From Thermofilaceae archaeon (GTDB taxonomy: Archaea > Thermoproteota > Thermoprotei > Thermofilales > Thermofilaceae): DNA of 64,000 nucleotides. Of this stretch, positions 14,245 through 23,491 are shown one piece after another (position 1 is the first letter of the stretch; each line of letters starts with the position of its first letter). Under the pieces are notes generated by a model that saw only the letters and a program-made list of their open reading frames with translations, ran no database searches and was not told the origin of the DNA. The stretch lies in NCBI GenBank assembly GCA_025057995.1, contig JANXEW010000004.1, forward strand, positions 24,801 to 88,800. The letters are read 5' to 3'. Position numbers and translations under genes: made by a program.

Positions 14245-14745
14245 ATGGAGCAGAACATCCTGATCGCCTACTACTCTTGGTCAGGGAACACACGCAGCCT
14301 CGCTGAAGTGATACACCGGTTCGTCAAAGGTGTCCTCTTCGAGATCGAGCCCCAGACACCTTACCCTAGCTCATACGACGAAACCGTGAAGCAGGCCAGA
14401 GAAGAGATCCGGAAGGGGTTTAAACCAGCGTTGAAGTCTAAACTGGAAACGGTTGAACCCTACAAGATTATCTTCATCGGTAGCCCCAACTGGTGGGGGA
14501 CTGTAGCACCGCCTGTGGCTAGTTTCCTAAGCATGTATGATCTCTCAGGTAAAGTGATAGCGCCCTTCTTCACTCACGGGGGAGGAGGTCTACAGCGTAT
14601 GCTGACAGCAGTCAAACAACTCTGTCCTAAATCAATCGTGCTCGAGCCACTCGTCGTCTACGAAGAGGGTGTGCACACAGCTGAAACGAGCGTGTCCGCT
14701 TGGTTGAAGAGGATTAACATTGAAAGGTACTTTGGCAACCCGTAG
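14245..14745 (+). CDS. flavodoxin-like protein
   Basis: ILIAYYSWSGNTRSLAE FMN-binding-loop-like start. Length of 166 aa is typical of short flavodoxin-fold proteins. Confidence 0.65.
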   Translation: MEQNILIAYYSWSGNTRSLAEVIHRFVKGVLFEIEPQTPYPSSYDETVKQAREEIRKGFKPALKSKLETVEPYKIIFIGSPNWWGTVAPPVASFLSMYDLSGKVIAPFFTHGGGGLQRMLTAVKQLCPKSIVLEPLVVYEEGVHTAETSVSAWLKRINIERYFGNP

Positions 14746-14754
14746 GTCAGATTA

Positions 14755-15657
14755 GTGCCTCGACTCAGGGCTTGGGAAGGGTACAGTCTCGAGATAACGT
14801 TAGCCCCATCTTTCATAAGGGCCCTTTTCGAGAAAAGAGGCTCATCCTACGTGAAGATCGCTGGAAGAAGCAGAGAAGCCGTCATATATCAAGAGGATGA
14901 GTGGGTAGTCTGCGAAGGTTGTAGTGGAGAAGAGCTATCTTTCTGGAGTGGGCTATGGCTAGACCGGGGGCTTGTTGAAGAAAGAGCTCCGCTCCTAGCG
15001 AAAGCTCAGAAGGGCTTAGGGCTCTCCGTTGACCCTTTCGACCGACATTTGATCTTCACGGCTGTGTTCCTGAGCAGAGCGACGAATTGGGAGGGAAACG
15101 TGTTGAAGTGGTGTAGAAGCATTTTCTCGAGAGCTGAGACGTTGGATGACTTGTTTGAATTCGACTTTTCCAGATTGGAGAGAAGCTTCCAACTCACCCA
15201 ACTCAAGAGAGCATTAATGAGTTATGCGGAAGTTGCCGACTTTAGGGATGTTTGGGAGGCAAGGAGAAGGCTTCTAAATATAAAGAACGTGGGACCGAAG
15301 CTCGCTGACGCTTACTTAATCTTCTCCGGTTTAGACTCAAACGCCGCTCCCATCGACAGGCATGCACTACGCATGGCTTCTAGACTCGGAATAACTGGGA
15401 AACCCCCGAGAAAGAGTTTCTGCCTTAGATACCCTTGCCCTAGCTGTCCGCTATCCGAGCAATGTCTTAGATCGCGTTTAGCAAAGCTCTACCATCCGGT
15501 TGCCGGATGGGTTCAGACAGCGTTCTACCTTCACGATAAAACCTTCTGCTCGACTAGAGCTTGCTCTAGCTGTCCGCTCTCCAGCTCCTGTAAAACAATA
15601 TCAACTACCTCCGTCTCTACTGACACGCGATGGAGAGGAGAGGCTACGACCCCTTGA
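14755..15657 (+). CDS. HhH-GPD superfamily DNA glycosylase/lyase with two C-terminal Cys4 motifs
   Basis: Helix-hairpin-helix IKNVGPKLADAYLIF followed by PIDRH (Lys plus Asp, consistent with a bifunctional glycosylase). Two copies of a C-x4-C-x2-C-x5-C motif: CLRYPCPSCPLSEQC and CSTRACSSCPLSSSC. Confidence 0.65.
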   Translation: MPRLRAWEGYSLEITLAPSFIRALFEKRGSSYVKIAGRSREAVIYQEDEWVVCEGCSGEELSFWSGLWLDRGLVEERAPLLAKAQKGLGLSVDPFDRHLIFTAVFLSRATNWEGNVLKWCRSIFSRAETLDDLFEFDFSRLERSFQLTQLKRALMSYAEVADFRDVWEARRRLLNIKNVGPKLADAYLIFSGLDSNAAPIDRHALRMASRLGITGKPPRKSFCLRYPCPSCPLSEQCLRSRLAKLYHPVAGWVQTAFYLHDKTFCSTRACSSCPLSSSCKTISTTSVSTDTRWRGEATTP

Positions 15658-16394
15658 AGACTTCAGAAGTGCTTAGAAACATCGTTTGTATAGAGAATCG
15701 ACGAAGGTACTACAGGTTTCGAGGAGGACGCTGGTACGGCGGGATAGCTACCGCGGACTGCGTAGGCTGTAACTTGCGCTGTGTCTTCTGCTGGGGTTGG
15801 CAGGTTCGCGATAAACCCCGTAGCGTAGGACGGTTCTACACTCCTCAAGAAGTTTCTAGGAACCTTCTTCAAATAGCTGAGCGCAAAGGTTACACACAGG
15901 TTAGGATCAGCGGCAACGAGCCTACGCTTTCATGGGGGCATCTGCTGGAGGTGATCGGTCAAATTGAAGCTGCTAACTTAAGCTTTATTCTAGAGACGAA
16001 TGGTATATTGATAGGCAGCGATAAAAGCTACGCGAGGGATTTATCCAAGTTTTCTAACCTCCACGTTAGAGTTTCGATAAAAGGAACTAGCCCTCAGGAG
16101 TTCCACGTGCTCACCGGCGCCGTGCCTGAAGCTTTCTACTTTCAACTTAAGGCTCTCGAAAACCTTCTCGACTACAATGTGACAGCCCATCCGGCTGTAA
16201 TGGTCTCTTTCACTGAACCTGGAAACGTTGAACGTTTGAAATCCATGCTCGCCGACATTGATAAAACTCTAGTCGCCGAGTTTGAAGAAGAGTACGTTTT
16301 CCTGTACCCTCACGTAGTTAAACAATTGACGAAAGCAGGGATTCGGCCTAGGAAAGCTTACGCGCCTGATAACATACCGGAGGAACTAGTGTAG
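15630..16394 (+). CDS. radical SAM protein
   Basis: CVGCNLRCVFCWG matches the CxxxCxxC radical SAM cluster motif. The GNEPTL glycine-rich SAM motif is present. The 5' end overlaps the upstream gene by 28 nt. Confidence 0.8.
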   Translation: MERRGYDPLKTSEVLRNIVCIENRRRYYRFRGGRWYGGIATADCVGCNLRCVFCWGWQVRDKPRSVGRFYTPQEVSRNLLQIAERKGYTQVRISGNEPTLSWGHLLEVIGQIEAANLSFILETNGILIGSDKSYARDLSKFSNLHVRVSIKGTSPQEFHVLTGAVPEAFYFQLKALENLLDYNVTAHPAVMVSFTEPGNVERLKSMLADIDKTLVAEFEEEYVFLYPHVVKQLTKAGIRPRKAYAPDNIPEELV

Positions 16395-16493
16395 AATAAC
16401 GAGAAGAGAGTTATTACGCGCTTGAAACGTTTTCTTTCCGACACTTTAGTTAATCGTCAAACGACAATGTTTATTTAGCCAAAAAATGAAAGC

Positions 16494-17789
16494 GTGTGCA
16501 TTATGGGAAACCTTCCCACGTACGAAGCATTGGAGAAGAAAGCACGAGAAAGCAAGTTCCTCAACGAGCCTCACGTGAAGAAGTTGATGGAACTGGCGCA
16601 AGATAAAAGCCTTTTCGAGAAATCGCCTGAGCATCTCTCAAAAATAAGGAGGGATTTGCTGAGGAGCTCACTGGATTTCTTCGCTAGAAACTACGAGTTC
16701 TACGAGAAGCTTCTGGAGACTCATGACATTGACCCGAAAGCGGCTGATTTCGAAGATCTTGCCAAGCTGGCTGTTCCATCTGACATGTTGAGAGGTGAAG
16801 GTTACGCTAGGTTCCTTATACCCAACAGGGATGGAGACGGTTTTACATTCCGATCAAGCGGCACAAGCGGTAAGGAGCCGGTAAAGATCTACAGAAGCCC
16901 GCTCGAGCTAGTTATGATGACCGTAGCTAACGCCAACCTCTTCGAGTACGTTTACGGAAGGGGTCTCGAGCCGGGCAAGGGTCTAGCCCTCTTCCTAGCA
17001 GCTGAGGAGCTGAAGAACCACTTGAACTTCGTAGCTTTCGTCGACCTAGCTCTACAGTACAAGAAGATAAAGCTGCTTTATGGAATGGATCTCGTCCAAG
17101 ACACTAGCGGAACCCCGATGTGGAAAAGACTGGTCCCCAACAGGGAGAGAATACTTCAGTTTATCAAGAGTAAGGATGAACCTAAGCTCTTCTTCTCAGC
17201 TCCAGCTGGCGTACACCTCTTATCGAAACAATTTAGTAGCTTAAACTTCTTCAAGAAAATGGTCTACAAGCTCGTCGCCGGGGCTCCGCCAATAAACTTA
17301 GGGAGGGGGGGTGTAATAGTGACCGGAGGCGGCGCTAAAGGCTTCGAAGTCCCCGAGTATGGTGTGATAGTTGAAGAGGCGAGGAAAGTCTTCAGGGCGG
17401 AGGACGCGTCAACGGGAGAAGAGGTTCCAGTTCCCTTTATGGATGTGTTAGGCATGACTGAAACTTTGACGGCGTTGCTAGACAAGTACGGTGTAATGCA
17501 TAAGATACCTCACCCGCTACAGGAGGTTTTCCTACTAGACCCTAAGACTTACAAGCCCATGAATGAGTTCAATAAGGACGGGCTCATAGCTATATTCGAC
17601 CCACTTGCCTTATCCTGGCTGGAGGTGTTCATCCCCGGCGACGTCGTAAGACAAATCCCGTCTGAGAAGTATTACGGTAGGGAGTTTATCTACGTGAGGA
17701 GGCTTACAGCGGAGGAAGGGTGGGATCTTCAAAGAGCGTGCGGAGGTACGCTTGAGGAACTGATGTATAAGGGTGCCCCCATGCGATGA
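16494..17789 (+). CDS. LuxE-like acyl-protein synthetase / adenylate-forming enzyme
   Basis: FRSSGTSGKEPVKIYRS (AMP-forming P-loop-like SSGTSG motif). The size and C-terminal layout resemble the LuxE/PaaK-type ANL subfamily. The true start may be the ATG at 16503 (MGNLPTYE), about 25 nt downstream of the TATA-like GTTTATTTAG. Confidence 0.65.
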   Translation: MCIMGNLPTYEALEKKARESKFLNEPHVKKLMELAQDKSLFEKSPEHLSKIRRDLLRSSLDFFARNYEFYEKLLETHDIDPKAADFEDLAKLAVPSDMLRGEGYARFLIPNRDGDGFTFRSSGTSGKEPVKIYRSPLELVMMTVANANLFEYVYGRGLEPGKGLALFLAAEELKNHLNFVAFVDLALQYKKIKLLYGMDLVQDTSGTPMWKRLVPNRERILQFIKSKDEPKLFFSAPAGVHLLSKQFSSLNFFKKMVYKLVAGAPPINLGRGGVIVTGGGAKGFEVPEYGVIVEEARKVFRAEDASTGEEVPVPFMDVLGMTETLTALLDKYGVMHKIPHPLQEVFLLDPKTYKPMNEFNKDGLIAIFDPLALSWLEVFIPGDVVRQIPSEKYYGREFIYVRRLTAEEGWDLQRACGGTLEELMYKGAPMR

Positions 17790-19219
17790 ACAGTGAAATA
17801 ATTCCTTTGTACCCTCGCGTCGAGAAGGAGAACTTGGATTCGGTCAGGCTCAAGGATATAAGATTGCTCGAGCCTAGGGAAGAGTGGTTATCCTCTCTTT
17901 TACAAAATGCAGTCGAATTGCAGCATGAGCTGTCAAATCTACCGCTTTCCGAGAGGTTGAAAGCAGTTCAACTGATAGGAGATACTTGGAGAAAGAAGCT
18001 TGAGGAAGGCAAACTGTACTGGGTTAAGGAGGATCTAGTAAAAGCCACAGGCTACAGTCCATCTCTCGTAGAAATGGAGATGAAGCTTGTGACAGAAGTT
18101 TTTAATCCGGGGAACGTGCGCAAGGTACTCGACTCGGGTCTCGTAGGCGGCTCAAGGAGTTTAGAGGAACCCGTAGAAGTAGCGCTTGGAGAGTTTGTTC
18201 GTAACCTTCCAGTCGGTCCCGTGCTAGTAATAGGCTCAGGCAACTCAGTCATCCCACCGCTTATCCCGACCGTGCTCTCCCTCACGATCGGCAACTTCAC
18301 GATCCTCAGACCTTCTCTAGCAAATTTTGAAGCTGTTAAAGAGGTTTACAGCGCGCTTGAAGAACTGCCGGAAGATAACCCCTTAAGACGCGCTCTACTC
18401 GTTAGCTACTTTACTCACGAGAGTAGAAATCTCATGTACCTGCTTGAGAGAGCACCCGTAGGCTTAGTTAACTACTGGGGTGGGGAACCGGGAAGAACAG
18501 CGGTATCTCGGGCCGTTGCAGCAAACCGGTATAGACCGAGGTTCATAGTAAATGGACCTATGACGGGATTCGCCTTAATCGATTCTGCCAACGCTACTAT
18601 GGAGGTCGCAGAAAAGCTTGCCTTGGAGATGGTGCTTTACGATCAACAGCTCTGCAGTAGCCCTACCCAGGCGGCGTTCCTTGGATCTCGAGAGGATGCG
18701 CTCCAGTTTGCTGAAATGGTTTGTAGTGCACTCGACAAGGTTGGTGGAGAGCACCCTTTAAGCCTTGAAAGCATCCCCTACCCCCTCTTCGTCCTACGCA
18801 AGAGCTTGGAGCTGGTTGGAGCTAAAGTGTACGCCAGCAGCGACCCGCGCAACCCGTGGACACTAGTATTAGCCGGTAAGAGGTCGGTACTCGATAAAGT
18901 ACCGCAGAACACACTCATCCCCTTTTACGCTCGAAAAAGGTTCCTTGAACTAGTTGTAGTCCAGACGTTGAACGAAGCCATGGAGCTGATAAGGAATCTA
19001 CCCGAAAACCCCGCTTACACTGGAGTGGACAAGGTTCAGACGTTGTCTATAGCAGTTAGCGGAGACGTGCTTAAACAGGTTACCAACTCATTACACCTGT
19101 TAAGAGTATATCGCGTCGTGCCTCTGGGCGAAAGTTTTCTGAGAACTCCTGTGGAACCCTACGACGGCTTCTTCATCCCCTCGGCGTTCTCGTACGCTGC
19201 GTACGTGAGGGTGAGGTAG
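17786..19219 (+). CDS. LuxC-like acyl-CoA/acyl-protein reductase (aldehyde-forming, ALDH fold)
   Basis: VIGSGNSVIPPL...GNFTILRPS is an ALDH-like nucleotide-binding region. YDQQLCSSPTQ is a candidate acyl-cysteine motif as in the LuxC family. Its ATG overlaps the upstream TGA (ATGA at 17786..17789). Confidence 0.65.
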   Translation: MNSEIIPLYPRVEKENLDSVRLKDIRLLEPREEWLSSLLQNAVELQHELSNLPLSERLKAVQLIGDTWRKKLEEGKLYWVKEDLVKATGYSPSLVEMEMKLVTEVFNPGNVRKVLDSGLVGGSRSLEEPVEVALGEFVRNLPVGPVLVIGSGNSVIPPLIPTVLSLTIGNFTILRPSLANFEAVKEVYSALEELPEDNPLRRALLVSYFTHESRNLMYLLERAPVGLVNYWGGEPGRTAVSRAVAANRYRPRFIVNGPMTGFALIDSANATMEVAEKLALEMVLYDQQLCSSPTQAAFLGSREDALQFAEMVCSALDKVGGEHPLSLESIPYPLFVLRKSLELVGAKVYASSDPRNPWTLVLAGKRSVLDKVPQNTLIPFYARKRFLELVVVQTLNEAMELIRNLPENPAYTGVDKVQTLSIAVSGDVLKQVTNSLHLLRVYRVVPLGESFLRTPVEPYDGFFIPSAFSYAAYVRVR

Positions 19220-19221
19220 AG

Positions 19222-20217
19222 TTGAAAATCCTGGTCACTGGAGCCTCCGGTTTCCTCGGCGGACACCTCGTCGAAGAGTTAGTCAACCGCGGTTACCGAG
19301 TACGAGCCTTCGTGCGGAGGACAAGTGACACGAAACTCCTGAAGGAGCTTGGCGTCGAACTTTTTACTGGTGATGTTACTGATCCTAAGACACTAGATCC
19401 CGCTACAAGGGGGGTTGACGCCGTTGTACACCTTGCGGCATACTATACTTTCTTCGGGAAAAAAGAGCTCTACGAGCTCGTTAACGTGAAGGGTACGGAG
19501 TGGACTGCTCGCGCCGCACTCGAAAACGGCGTAAAGCGCTTCATATACTGTAGTAGTACGGAGGCGATCGGTCCCGTAAGGAACCCTCCCGGAGATGAAA
19601 ACACAAGCCCTAACCCACAGTTTGAGTACGGGAAGTCTAAGGCCAAGGCTGAGAACGTAGTCAAGAGCCTCGCCCAGGAGGGGCTAGAGTACACGATCAT
19701 AAGACCATCCGGCATATACGGACCCAGAAATATCGACGATATATCTTACTGGTTCATAACTAGCTACGCTAAAGGCGGGTTAGCAAGTAGAATCGCGCTA
19801 GGTTCCGGAGAGAACCTGGTTCAGTTCGCTCACGTCAAAGACGTAGTTCAAGGATTCATCCTCGCTCTAGAAAGAGAGGCGGCGGTAAATCAAGTTTACA
19901 TCATAAGCGAGGACAGGTGGTACACGTTCAATCAAGTCTACCAGATCTTGTACGAGTTGTGCGGCAAAGGTCCACCACACGTCAAGTTGCATCCCGCGCT
20001 CGCTAAATTCCTCCTAATCCCTCTGGAGATCTACGATGTCTTAAAAGGCGAAGGTAACCTCATGCACCGTACCGCGCTTGTCGACTCGGTTACGAGGGAC
20101 AGAGCCTATAGCATCGAGAAAGCCAAGAGGGAGCTAGGCTATAGTCCAAGTTACGACTTGCGTAGTGGGTTGCGGGAGACATTACGGTGGTATGAGGAAA
20201 ATGGCTTCCTAAGCTGA
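19222..20217 (+). CDS. NAD(P)-dependent epimerase/dehydratase-family SDR
   Basis: KILVTGASGFLGGHLV (GxxGxxG) and the YGKSK catalytic YxxxK motif. TTG start 2 nt after the LuxC-like stop. Confidence 0.85.
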   Translation: MKILVTGASGFLGGHLVEELVNRGYRVRAFVRRTSDTKLLKELGVELFTGDVTDPKTLDPATRGVDAVVHLAAYYTFFGKKELYELVNVKGTEWTARAALENGVKRFIYCSSTEAIGPVRNPPGDENTSPNPQFEYGKSKAKAENVVKSLAQEGLEYTIIRPSGIYGPRNIDDISYWFITSYAKGGLASRIALGSGENLVQFAHVKDVVQGFILALEREAAVNQVYIISEDRWYTFNQVYQILYELCGKGPPHVKLHPALAKFLLIPLEIYDVLKGEGNLMHRTALVDSVTRDRAYSIEKAKRELGYSPSYDLRSGLRETLRWYEENGFLS

Positions 20218-20318
20218 GAACGGGCTTCTACTAAGCACTTACCCCCACGCTGTTCAGGAGAGTCAACTCTTAACCAGCTACAACACGTGAATGTTACCTT
20301 CTTTCGTTTTTCCTACGA

Positions 20319-21071
20319 TTATAGGTGTTCTCTAATCCACGATAGGACCACAGCCTCCACCTCTCTTCGAACATTGTAGTCGTTAAAAACGTGGCCACCC
20401 TTCACTTCGAGGAACTTCTTCTTCACATTCAATGCCTCGAAGGAGGCCTTTGCTCTATCCAGAGGTACAGCTTCGTCGTCAACTGCATGAATTTGTAGAG
20501 TGGGCGCTTTAATCAAACTGGCTAGCTCTGGTGAAGAAACTAAGTCCTCTAGACCCTCTACCCTGATCCTTAGGGCACCGAAGTAAACATACTCGCCACG
20601 CTGAAAACGCTCCCAGCGACGTTCAAAGGGAGCGAAAGGACTAGTTGAGAGCAAAACCAAAGCTGCTATGTCACTGCGACCTGCAGCCACTCTAGTCGCT
20701 ACAAAGCCTCCCATGCTGAGGCCTACAATAGCAAAACGTGAGGCATCAACCTTATCGAGAGTTTTTAGGAATTGAATAGCGTTTTCAGCATCCTCTACAG
20801 CCATCCGGACACGGAATTCCTCGAACGGGAGAGGTGAGTCTCCGTGGCAGCGGAAGTCGAAGCGTAAGACGGCGTAGCCTGCCGAGCATAAGACACGTGC
20901 CATATCCGTGTAGAGCCTACCCGCCTCGCTCTTGTTACCCGTGAAACCGTGTAGAAGGAGAACCGGTTTAGGCTTAGGTGCTTTATCGGGAAGGTGGAGG
21001 ACTCCAGCTAGCCTTAAATCAGAGCTTGGAACCCAAACGAGTTCCTCCAAGTGGCCTACAGAATGGTTCAC
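20319..21071 (-). CDS. alpha/beta-hydrolase (serine hydrolase), paralog of 51912..52673
   Basis: LLLHGFTGNKSEAG, nucleophile elbow GLSMGG, C-terminal D...GGH triad residues. Confidence 0.8.
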   Translation of the reverse strand: MNHSVGHLEELVWVPSSDLRLAGVLHLPDKAPKPKPVLLLHGFTGNKSEAGRLYTDMARVLCSAGYAVLRFDFRCHGDSPLPFEEFRVRMAVEDAENAIQFLKTLDKVDASRFAIVGLSMGGFVATRVAAGRSDIAALVLLSTSPFAPFERRWERFQRGEYVYFGALRIRVEGLEDLVSSPELASLIKAPTLQIHAVDDEAVPLDRAKASFEALNVKKKFLEVKGGHVFNDYNVRREVEAVVLSWIREHL

Positions 21072-21128: not shown

Positions 21129-22790
21129 TCAAGGACTTTGTAAACGCTTTTCGCCTACCTTCCTTTCAAGTTCGAGAAGAGCCGCAGCACTGTAGAAGCG
21201 AGTGTAGACTCTAGCTAGGTTGGCCGGTTTTCGCTCCCTAAGCCACAAGTCGGCGTAAATGCTCGCTAAACCTATGAAGTCGGCGACCGTAGCCTTTCCC
21301 TCAACCTTCCTTAGCCCGACATCCAAGCAACGCTTGATGAATTCCAGGTCACGAGGGAGGAGTACCCCCTCTGCTAATTTCAACGCTTGTCTCCATTCGT
21401 CGAAGATAGTCAAATTTTTAACTTCCTCCGTTGGTGAGAATAACACTTTCTTAATGTTGTTAGCGATCGAGCTTTTTCCGAACATCTTCCTCACTTCAAG
21501 AACATCGCACGACTCTCCGCTCAACGCGAGCCATTTCTCCTCCCAAGAGCCTTTACCTTCAGCGTACTCCATTGAAGCTAGGATAAGAGGGTAAAGGAAC
21601 GAGTACAAACACTCTTCGCCGTCATCGCCCCAAGCTGTAACCATAAAGCCTTTCACACCCTCCTCTCTAGCTGCCTGGAGGAAGTTTTTCACGTTAGTTA
21701 GAGCTATGTCGAAATCAGGGTAGTACTTGTTCCAGTTCCATAAGCCTGGACAAGCCAGCTGTTCATACCCCCTTTCTTTAAAGAGTCTAACCTTCTCTTT
21801 AAAGTATTCAAGGGTATTAGGCGTATAATCCCAGTTCGCGATCAAAGCTTCGCGCCAAACTGGGTTCTCCAATATCTTTCTCCAGAGCTCGCGCTCTTCT
21901 TCTCGCAAGTACATTCCAGCCACCATGTCTCCCCAGATCATCGGTATCTTGCCGCTGTCTCTAACCATCCGAATAAGCTTCGAGTGGTGTTCAGCGTAGA
22001 GGTTCGGACCCTCAAACTTTAGCGTTTTGTCCAAGCTTCTACCCCTACCGAGAGCCCAAGTTTCATCTCCGCCAACGTGTAAGTACTTTGACTCAGTCTT
22101 CAAAATAGCTTCCTCAAGCAGCTCCTCTGCAAACTTCCTCGCCTCAAGGTCACTAACGTTCAAGCAACCTTCTTCAGGTCTATGCCACTCGCTGAACCGC
22201 CAGTACTTGGGAAGCGTGAGTATCCATTCCATGTGACCGCACAACTCAAGAGACGGGAAGACTTCAATCCCTAGCCTCTTACCATACTCGACCACTTCTC
22301 TCCACTCCTCATTCGTATATCTACCCCTCTTCACACCTATGTCAGGATACCTGTCCCAGGGAAAGAGGTCTTCAACGTATATAGCTAGATAATTGTACTT
22401 GAGTAGGAAAAGCCAACGGAGCAATTTCTTCACCTCCTCAACTGTAGCGACTCCGCCGCGTGCGACATCTAGGTGAAAGCCACGAAACTCGAAGCGCAAC
22501 TCCTCTTCAACTCTGACCGCCGGTAGTTTACAACAGCCTCCCTGTATAGCTAGTTGGAGTAGAGTTGCCGTGTATACTCCCGGAACTCCCCACACCTCAA
22601 CGTAGCCATCGCGTACTTCAAGCCCCGATCCCCTTCTATCCACTCTCCTTATCTCCCAGCTACCCTTAGGGATGCAGAACTCTGAAGCGATAAAATCGTC
22701 AAGGTTCACGAAACCGTCAAAGTCAAACCAACGTTCCTTAAACTCGAGTTTAACTGGCTCGGGAACTACAACTGGCTTAACTTGGCTCAT
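21129..22790 (-). CDS. GH20-like beta-N-acetylhexosaminidase
   Basis: FRGFHLDVARG and HVGGDETW match the GH20 catalytic-domain motifs. I place the start at the ATG at 22790 (MSQVKPVV). The track's longest ORF runs to 22895 and would overlap the ThuA gene by 70 nt. Confidence 0.75.
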   Translation of the reverse strand: MSQVKPVVVPEPVKLEFKERWFDFDGFVNLDDFIASEFCIPKGSWEIRRVDRRGSGLEVRDGYVEVWGVPGVYTATLLQLAIQGGCCKLPAVRVEEELRFEFRGFHLDVARGGVATVEEVKKLLRWLFLLKYNYLAIYVEDLFPWDRYPDIGVKRGRYTNEEWREVVEYGKRLGIEVFPSLELCGHMEWILTLPKYWRFSEWHRPEEGCLNVSDLEARKFAEELLEEAILKTESKYLHVGGDETWALGRGRSLDKTLKFEGPNLYAEHHSKLIRMVRDSGKIPMIWGDMVAGMYLREEERELWRKILENPVWREALIANWDYTPNTLEYFKEKVRLFKERGYEQLACPGLWNWNKYYPDFDIALTNVKNFLQAAREEGVKGFMVTAWGDDGEECLYSFLYPLILASMEYAEGKGSWEEKWLALSGESCDVLEVRKMFGKSSIANNIKKVLFSPTEEVKNLTIFDEWRQALKLAEGVLLPRDLEFIKRCLDVGLRKVEGKATVADFIGLASIYADLWLRERKPANLARVYTRFYSAAALLELERKVGEKRLQSP

Positions 22791-22825
22791 CGCAAGTAAA
22801 AGAGAAAACCATCTAAAAACTGTTG

Positions 22826-23491
22826 CTATAGACCCATAGCCCAAACTAGTCCGCCGAGCAAATGCCGTTGAAACCAATCCTGTCTCCAAAGCCAAGTGAA
22901 ATGCCCAAAGGCTGTGTAAAACACCCTGCCTCTACCGTAGTTGTGGCACCAAGCGAGCGCGTAATCGTTATCTGGACGCGTCCCCTTGCTTAAGTCTACA
23001 GAAGAGTTGTCGAGGCTGATGAGTACGTGAGTCTTCTCCCTACTCCAATCTCTGAACGTGTAAACTTCTTCGAGAACTTCAAAAGTCGGAGACAAGTGTC
23101 TAGTCGATGGGTGTGTAAGGTCCTCGACTCTAACTTTCACCACTTGCGTCCACGGATGAGCTATGAAGTATCCACCAAGCATTTCCCCGTACTCCCTGAA
23201 ATTGTACAAAGTATCTGCAGCATTATGGACTCCTATAAAGGCTCCGCCTTCGCGAACAAAGTCTACAATCGCACGCTTTTGTTCATCGCTTAAAGGCAAC
23301 TCACCGGTTGTAATGAAGACGAGTGCAGAATACGAGCTTAATCTCTCCGGGTCTAGGTCTGACGGCTCCTCAGTTGCGAAAACCTCGAACAGCTTACTCC
23401 TCTCACCCAGCTTTACTAGCACCTCCACGGCAGTAGGAATGTAGCTGTGCCTAAAGCCCGCCGAATGTGTAAAAGCGATGACCTTTCTCAC
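22826..23491 (-). CDS. ThuA-like (trehalose-utilisation, class-I glutamine-amidotransferase-like fold) protein
   Basis: FTHSAGFRHSYIP, FITTGELPLSDEQKRAIVDFVREGGAFIGVHNAADT, and GRGRVFYTAFGH blocks are typical of ThuA. Confidence 0.75.
   Translation of the reverse strand: MRKVIAFTHSAGFRHSYIPTAVEVLVKLGERSKLFEVFATEEPSDLDPERLSSYSALVFITTGELPLSDEQKRAIVDFVREGGAFIGVHNAADTLYNFREYGEMLGGYFIAHPWTQVVKVRVEDLTHPSTRHLSPTFEVLEEVYTFRDWSREKTHVLISLDNSSVDLSKGTRPDNDYALAWCHNYGRGRVFYTAFGHFTWLWRQDWFQRHLLGGLVWAMGL

Follow-up and report, generated by a model that had tools for sequence, protein, structure and literature searches.

A LuxE/LuxC-type gene pair with a fixed short-chain dehydrogenase partner, a probable carboxylic acid reductase cassette of anaerobic archaea

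To our knowledge, the chemistry of LuxC and LuxE has so far been characterised solely as the supply of aldehyde to bacterial luciferase. Carboxylic acid reductase (CAR) and alpha-aminoadipate reductase also convert an acid via acyl-AMP and a protein-bound thioester to an aldehyde, and both ATP and NADPH are consumed on the way. Here we describe a three-gene cassette in a window of 64,000 nucleotides (the whole stretch of DNA that was analysed) from a Thermofilaceae archaeon; its first two genes are related to LuxE and LuxC, and the third encodes a short-chain dehydrogenase/reductase (SDR) of the extended type. The closest described system is LuxC-LuxE of Photobacterium phosphoreum (PDB 7XC6; Pfam PF05893 and PF04443), in which, as in the archaeal cassette, an adenylating subunit and a thioester reductase with an aldehyde dehydrogenase (ALDH) fold are encoded by adjacent genes. 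Mutagenesis and structure have established K238, R354/R355 and C364 as the catalytic residues of LuxE (PMC9157457). K238, in the loop 234-GGGWKTKQ, stands in for the lysine that PaaK carries on a C-terminal subdomain, and this ANL subdomain is absent from LuxE; R354/R355 are required for activity; and C364, which belongs to a flexible C-terminal motif or loop that the structure leaves unresolved, carries the acyl group to a LuxC cysteine that lies more than 30 Å away (Tian et al. 2022, PMC9157457).

In the Thermofilaceae window, three open reading frames (ORFs) on the + strand (16494-17789, 17786-19219 and 19222-20217) correspond to the following genes, which probably form one operon for a two-component carboxylic acid reductase of the LuxE/LuxC type together with an aldehyde reductase:

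16503..17789, + strand: gene 1, LuxE-like acyl-adenylate-forming enzyme / acyl-protein synthetase, 428 aa from ATG 16503
17786..19219, + strand: gene 2, LuxC-family acyl-thioester reductase, 477 aa
19222..20217, + strand: gene 3, extended SDR, proposed aldehyde reductase, 331 aa, TTG start

As an earlier note on this DNA had described, the LuxE-like, LuxC-like and SDR genes are tightly packed: the stop of gene 1 and the ATG of gene 2 share the ATGA at 17786-17789, and only a 2-nt gap separates the stop of gene 2 (TAG, 19217-19219) from the TTG of gene 3 at 19222 (junction 19217-19224). The motifs that had been read there, FRSSGTSGKEPVKIY in gene 1, YDQQLCSSPTQ in gene 2 and GxxGxxG/YxxxK in gene 3, are each found in the gene to which they were assigned. 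The ORF that had been given for gene 1, 16494-17789, is likewise present, but judging from the alignment of relatives its start is most likely ATG 16503 (428 aa) rather than GTG 16494 (431 aa), because the closest homologues are 428 aa long and begin at the aligned Met. Residue numbers for gene 1 follow the 431-aa version.

Gene 2 is placed in the LuxC family, and not among ordinary ALDHs, by Pfam, by sequence comparison with the PDB and by fold. It scores 109.8 bits with the Pfam LuxC family PF05893, whose cutoff is 21, over profile positions 3-393 of 401, and the same family is present in all 120 gene 2 homologues among the matches listed. A single PDB sequence is matched significantly: LuxC from the fatty acid reductase complex of Photobacterium (7xc6_A, 5e-12). 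The YDQQAC of this LuxC, containing the acyl-accepting Cys296 (7XC6 numbering), aligns with YDQQLC of gene 2; C290 of gene 2 and the surrounding YDQQLCSSPT are invariant in 28 diverse homologues. The AlphaFold2 (AF2) model of gene 2, with a predicted local distance difference test score (pLDDT) of 92.3, has the same LuxC chain as its best Foldseek match (template modelling score, TM, 0.80; root-mean-square deviation 3.5; about 16% identity), compared with TM 0.62-0.71 for ordinary ALDHs. With 41.4 bits against a cutoff of 750, gene 2 falls below the NCBIfam LuxC equivalog NF052251 and is therefore a member of the family rather than an ortholog of the LuxC of lux operons.

The ALDH fold of gene 2 would also suit an oxidative enzyme that converts aldehyde to acid, and one could then regard gene 3 as a nucleotide-sugar epimerase or dehydratase that is merely co-located. 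We consider such oxidative or unrelated roles very improbable. In the alignment to LuxC we read an invariant Asn-Gly-Pro (N256) in gene 2 at the position where ALDHs have their general-base Glu, and the residues for hydrolysis are likewise missing from LuxC; moreover, an ATP-consuming adenylating partner would make no sense for an oxidation.

The placement of gene 1 was the less certain of the two. It is about 55 aa longer than LuxE and, unlike gene 2, which passes the Pfam LuxC threshold and fails only the NCBIfam equivalog, it lies below the LuxE thresholds of both Pfam and NCBIfam. A Pfam search at E <= 0.01 gave no match (no LuxE, AMP-binding or PaaK), NCBIfam gave faint matches to LuxE (0.005; 15.8 bits against a cutoff of 550) and to the DVU_1553 AMP-ligase (0.0097), and a precomputed PF04443 assignment exists for just 4 of the 120 gene 1 homologues among the matches listed. 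The AF2 model (pLDDT 87) has a compact ANL adenylate-forming, PaaK-like fold, and its nearest solved folds in Foldseek are BT_0428 and PaaK1/2 (PDB 2Y27, 2Y4O, 4R1M; TM about 0.6), with which gene 1 shares the N-terminal helical region and an aligned SSGTTGK P-loop motif at an identity of 12-16%. The LuxE chain 7xc6_E is not among the top 50 Foldseek matches, which may reflect an incomplete cryo-EM chain or a lower rank, and the relationship of gene 1 to LuxE therefore rests on sequence profiles.

These profiles consistently point to LuxE, as the earlier note had proposed. When a profile of 28 gene 1 family sequences is compared with the PDB, LuxE 7xc6_E is the best match (2.4e-4), ahead of PaaK (0.04-0.26), whose matches span the N-terminal 90 residues only. 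Among 1.84 billion representatives the same profile retrieves 75 proteins at E <= 1e-3, and the family is therefore very isolated; all eight distant full-length matches that Pfam can classify belong to PF04443 LuxE, and none to PaaK or AMP-binding. An HHalign comparison of the gene 1 family with eight genuine PF04443 proteins gives a probability of 99.85% (E = 8.2e-31, 362 columns, about 20% identity). In this alignment K282, in the TGGGxKG loop, falls on the Lys of the LuxE GGWK loop, R402/R403 fall on the LuxE Arg-Arg pair, and C416, in QRACGG, falls on the invariant Cys of the LuxE C-terminal RGC, so that loop Lys, Arg pair and tail acyl-Cys are all aligned, as is the acyl-Cys of LuxC with that of gene 2. 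The same residues, together with SSGT 121-124, are invariant in the gene 1 family alignment. The candidate acyl-Cys lies 9-17 residues from the C-terminus throughout the family, and the tail of the Thermofilaceae protein that follows it (417-431) has a pLDDT below 50 and is disordered in the model. Only 28 residues follow the RR pair, which therefore leaves no room for an ANL C-terminal subdomain with a PaaK-type Lys. At the level of sequence we thus reject a place for gene 1 in the PaaK / F390-synthetase family, its similarity to PaaK being one of fold only; gene 1 would instead represent a family of its own, an isolated sister of LuxE that escapes present LuxE models.

A route through coenzyme A (CoA) has to be weighed at this point. 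In it, gene 1 would be a PaaK-type ligase with free acyl-CoA as its product, gene 2 would reduce this acyl-CoA as an enzyme on its own, gene 3 would reduce an aldehyde or ketone, and there would be no Cys relay. Such a route is compatible with the place of BT_0428 and PaaK1/2 at the top of the Foldseek list and with the names in public records, where many gene 1 family members carry the JGI label 'phenylacetate-CoA ligase', the gene 2 family carries the NCBI label 'acyl-CoA reductase', and the Pfam family itself is titled 'Acyl-CoA reductase (LuxC)'. These names are inconsistent, and range from 'hypothetical' through 'phenylacetate-CoA ligase', 'long-chain fatty acid--CoA ligase' and 'acyl-CoA reductase' to 'aldehyde dehydrogenase'. 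We regard the CoA route as unlikely, because the invariant C-terminal Cys of gene 1 coincides with the acyl-Cys of LuxE, the catalytic Lys belongs to a GGGxK loop specific to LuxE and not to a C-terminal subdomain, for which the protein is too short, the Pfam-classified distant relatives are all LuxE, and a natural fusion joins a gene-1-like domain to LuxC.

This fusion, P0250, has 884 aa and unites a LuxC domain with a gene-1-like one. The more distant relatives of gene 1 each precede a LuxC-like gene as well. In the actinobacterium Pseudonocardia sediminis, the gene-1-like protein has REGCGG at its end, and after it comes an uncalled LuxC-like ORF with QQMCSSPT (L086, 9041-10700), which, from its sequence, looks like a missed gene in the public record. 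In another distant pair (L087, 6017-10699), the SDR position directly after the LuxC-like gene is taken by a convergent zinc-dependent alcohol dehydrogenase whose best match is Ahr, an NADPH-dependent aldehyde reductase, and this gene therefore fits an aldehyde-to-alcohol step that follows the pair.

The order of the three genes is widely conserved. A scan with one genome per GTDB species, using patterns specific to the core gene 1 family that would miss distant bacterial relatives, gave 80 loci, archaeal without exception. They occur in Thermofilales, in Zestosphaera and other metagenome-assembled genomes of Desulfurococcaceae/Sulfolobales, in Methanomethylicia/Methanosuratincola, in Nitrososphaerota including Conexivisphaerales, and further in Brockarchaeota, Bathyarchaeota, Odinarchaeia, Archaeoglobales, Methanofastidiosia and many Methanomassiliicoccales. 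We counted synteny in 78 dereplicated loci, drawn from about ten phyla or orders of archaea. Gene 1 is immediately followed by gene 2 in 72 of them, gene 3 comes next in 65, and genes 2 and 3 overlap by 4 nt at more than 30 junctions. Most of the loci that lack the full trio are cut by contig ends, and in two (L014, L018) one gene is inserted ahead of gene 3. Given this order and these 4-nt overlaps, the packing is not due to chance. Placement of gene 1 in the PaaK family, placement of gene 2 among plain ALDHs and a lack of synteny, which the earlier note had named as outcomes that would speak against its proposal, were none of them found.

The gene 1 protein is also conserved between phyla (51-66% identity), with a median of 57% outside Thermofilaceae, compared with 43% for gene 2. 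Its identity is nearly flat with taxonomic distance, at 61% in Archaeoglobales and Methanosuratincola and 53-58% in Methanomassiliicoccales and Odinarchaeia, which points either to unusually strong constraint or to transfer of the cassette between archaeal phyla. Conservation of this kind implies that the function is constrained and probably important. A homologue of gene 1 is on record for Thermofilum pendens (UniRef name).

The cassette differs from lux in its fixed SDR partner, in its occurrence in archaea and in the lack of lux partners. Its constant third member is an extended SDR, luxAB and luxD are not part of the module, and no recurrent partner of that kind was seen among the annotated neighbour clusters of the 78 loci; the hosts, unlike those of LuxC-LuxE, are anaerobic archaea. 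Full-text literature searching found no paper on an archaeal LuxC/LuxE system.

Gene 3 carries the motifs of an extended SDR, GASGFLGG (GxxGxxG) and YGKSK, and its S111/T113, Y136, K140 and R32 are invariant in 63 sequences, so that the Ser/Thr-Tyr-Lys site is intact. Its Pfam matches are PF01370 Epimerase (151.5 bits), PF01073 3Beta_HSD (122.4 bits) and GDP_Man_Dehyd. The matches to Epimerase and GDP_Man_Dehyd are the evidence in favour of a co-located nucleotide-sugar enzyme; against such a coincidence stands the position of gene 3 after gene 2, retained across phyla in 65 loci and, in most, with a 4-nt overlap. The best-scoring named families in NCBIfam are lipid-type SDRs, HpnA (1e-52), OleD (8e-39) and SdmB (2e-38), and with these and 3-beta-HSD-type extended SDRs gene 3 shares the full Ser/Thr-Tyr-Lys site. 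Its scores are far short of the equivalog cutoffs (179 against 368 for HpnA, 134 against 580 for OleD and 133 against 600 for SdmB), and it is therefore outside all three. A score is also obtained against the decarboxylating sterol-4-carboxylate 3-dehydrogenase. The best PDB match, again with the same catalytic site, is 3wj7_A (4.9e-42), which we take to be Gox2253, presumably an NADPH-dependent medium-chain aldehyde reductase of Gluconobacter. Judging only by its fold class and position, gene 3 most likely reduces the aldehyde made by genes 1 and 2 to a primary alcohol.

Taken together, the homology, the conservation of catalytic residues, the gene pairing, the natural fusion and the synteny support a model in which gene 1 would adenylate a carboxylic acid with ATP by means of K282 and R402/R403, and the acyl group of the resulting acyl-AMP would shift to Cys416 on the protein's own flexible C-terminal tail. 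The tail would then swing into gene 2 and hand the acyl group to Cys290, the thioester would be reduced with NAD(P)H to a free aldehyde, and gene 3, probably NADPH-dependent, would reduce the aldehyde to a primary alcohol. The net reaction would be R-COOH + ATP + 2 NAD(P)H -> R-CH2OH + AMP + PPi (pyrophosphate). What we infer is which way and in what order the steps run, what gene 3 does and which acid is used; as a whole, we think this full predicted activity, an acid reductase of the LuxE/LuxC type followed by an aldehyde reductase, is probably correct. By general knowledge, its overall logic is that of CAR and alpha-aminoadipate reductase; in CAR, however, the acyl group is held on a phosphopantetheine arm, the R domain is of the SDR type and a single polypeptide carries all functions, whereas the cassette would use a tail Cys as carrier and a reductase with the ALDH fold. 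With respect to PaaK and BT_0428, the LuxE-type loop Lys and the tail Cys make the difference.

Several observations weigh against this model. Gene 1 fails the NCBIfam LuxE model and finds no Pfam family, and its nearest solved folds are CoA ligases, all of which is compatible with the CoA route, improbable as we hold that to be. Gene 1 occurs without an adjacent gene 2 or gene 3 in three loci (L009, L010, L029), and gene 3 is not nearby in two others (L044, L054). The neighbourhoods outside the trio offer no consistent clue to the substrate, and we know of no recognised need of archaea for fatty aldehydes or fatty alcohols. The target of gene 3 could be a different functional group of the substrate, either ahead of the reduction or following it. 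Finally, the activities of these families are predictions from homology.

Our best guess for the substrate, and a weak one, is a hydrophobic aliphatic acid (fatty or isoprenoid), which we favour in view of gene 3's affinities and the known LuxC/LuxE substrates. Genes 1 and 2 could instead apply the same chemistry to a polar metabolite or cofactor precursor, such as an amino, hydroxy, dicarboxylic or aromatic acid, with gene 3 acting as a dehydrogenase, decarboxylase or epimerase on another group and with a product specific to anaerobic archaea. The high conservation of gene 1 relative to gene 2 would fit a fixed, universal small substrate, fatty acids are not used in archaeal membranes, the score of gene 3 against the decarboxylating sterol-4-carboxylate 3-dehydrogenase would fit a decarboxylase, and in 18 Methanomassiliicoccales loci the trio is followed by a weakly MenA-like UbiA gene, MenA-type enzymes being those that prenylate an aromatic acid. 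Yet no biosynthetic neighbour is kept across clades, the top named families of gene 3 have lipid-like substrates, and fatty acids are the substrates of the characterised LuxC/LuxE systems (PMC9157457); we therefore rate a polar substrate as improbable, about on a par with the CoA route, and retain a hydrophobic acid as the working choice.

The DNA around the trio contains two further features:

16470..16477, + strand: TATA-box-like TTTATTTA, a candidate read from the sequence
20307..20311, + strand: T5 run, a possible archaeal terminator, about 90 nt past the stop of gene 3, read from the sequence

If the transcript is leaderless and begins near ATG 16503, as expected, the TTTATTTA lies about 26 nt upstream of its start, and inspection of the two internal junctions reveals a Shine-Dalgarno-like GGTG 14 nt before the ATG of gene 2 and a Shine-Dalgarno-like GGTGAGGT 8-12 nt before the TTG of gene 3. 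Such promoter-, Shine-Dalgarno- and terminator-like signals would be compatible with a single polycistronic unit.

Beyond the trio, no neighbour is conserved across clades in the 78 loci; the annotated clusters of recurrent neighbours comprise an ABC-2 transporter, a thiamine pyrophosphate enzyme, UbiA, radical SAM, KARI, GAPDH, GrpB and ComB. We compared neighbouring genes by BLASTP across 84 related loci. The earlier note had pointed to a radical SAM gene upstream on the same strand, and such a gene is indeed present (15630-16394, +, Pfam PF04055, 254 aa), ending 99 nt before gene 1, but a link to the module is not borne out: a homologue occurs near gene 1 in 0 of the 84 loci, including two other Thermofilaceae loci. 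The gene overlaps by 28 nt the 3' end of a 300-aa ORF (14755-15657, +), which has a weak Ogg/HhH glycosylase match only (TIGR00588, 7e-7) and a Cys-rich C-terminus, and this pair is preceded by a flavodoxin gene (14245-14745). Unrelated radical SAM genes, which belong to different, clade-specific subfamilies, are found convergent beside the cassette of Methanomassiliicoccales and directly upstream of the fusion P0250. We also rejected the ABC-2 transporter as a conserved partner; it occurs at 23 loci in several clades, but in variable positions and on both strands, and since ABC ATPases are common we take its recurrence as chance. Downstream of the T5 run lies a convergent alpha/beta hydrolase gene (20319-21071, minus strand), considered as a LuxD-like supplier of acid and likewise rejected, given that its sole match in the other loci is a weak one, 33% over 150 aa, in another Thermofilaceae locus (L006). 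Further along (21129-23491, minus strand), the gene for a GH20-family glycosidase (588 aa, TTG start) overlaps that of a ThuA-like 'trehalose utilisation' protein (221 aa) by about 70 nt, and so long an overlap suggests that the GH20 start is called too far upstream.

Clade-specific contexts are seen in Methanomassiliicoccales and at the loci of distant relatives. In 18 loci of Methanomassiliicoccales (for example L028, 13782-14738), the next same-strand gene after the trio encodes a weakly MenA-like (71 bits) prenyltransferase of the UbiA family, and beyond it lies a convergent PTO1314-like radical SAM gene; L003 (11772-13696) has the same arrangement. UbiA, radical SAM and branched-chain amino acid genes recur in Methanomassiliicoccales only. 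The UbiA gene hints at a prenylated product in these organisms. The fusion P0250 ends a same-strand run (L085, 2668-10655) that includes a NodU-like carbamoyltransferase and a 399-aa protein. The run also has two radical SAM proteins: one is RaSEA-like and scores 240 bits, where the cutoff is 212, and the other, of the radical SAM/SPASM type, has a stop that overlaps the P0250 start. It may represent a separate and more extensive pathway that employs this reductase chemistry. Upstream of the L087 pair lie a sulfotransferase that is Stf0-like (trehalose 2-sulfotransferase-like) and a sulfatase, which suggests a route from acid via alcohol to sulfate ester in that organism.

By the sequence evidence, a divergent and apparently mechanistically intact version of LuxC/LuxE has been fixed as a three-gene cassette in many anaerobic archaea, including methyl-reducing methanogens, an Asgard class and Thermofilaceae. 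Given the T. pendens homologue, a cultured archaeon could serve as the source for cloning the genes, and the cassette may yield a thermostable carboxylic acid reductase for biocatalysis that needs no carrier protein. Identification of the substrate would close a gap in archaeal metabolism. Archaeal membranes consist of isoprenoid ethers, and a more speculative reading, which we hold to be unlikely, is that the cassette is an archaea-specific route from a lipid-like or aromatic acid to an aldehyde or alcohol building block for an undescribed membrane component or membrane-bound carrier. That component or carrier could be an alkyl or prenyl ether, or a quinone-like head or tail, and the cassette could form a four-gene unit with the MenA-like prenyltransferase in Methanomassiliicoccales. 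If this were true, the reduction of fatty or isoprenoid acids would be an overlooked and conserved part of the lipid or cofactor metabolism of archaea, among them Thermofilaceae, Methanomethylicia, Bathyarchaeia, Odinarchaeia, Brockarchaeota and Methanomassiliicoccales.

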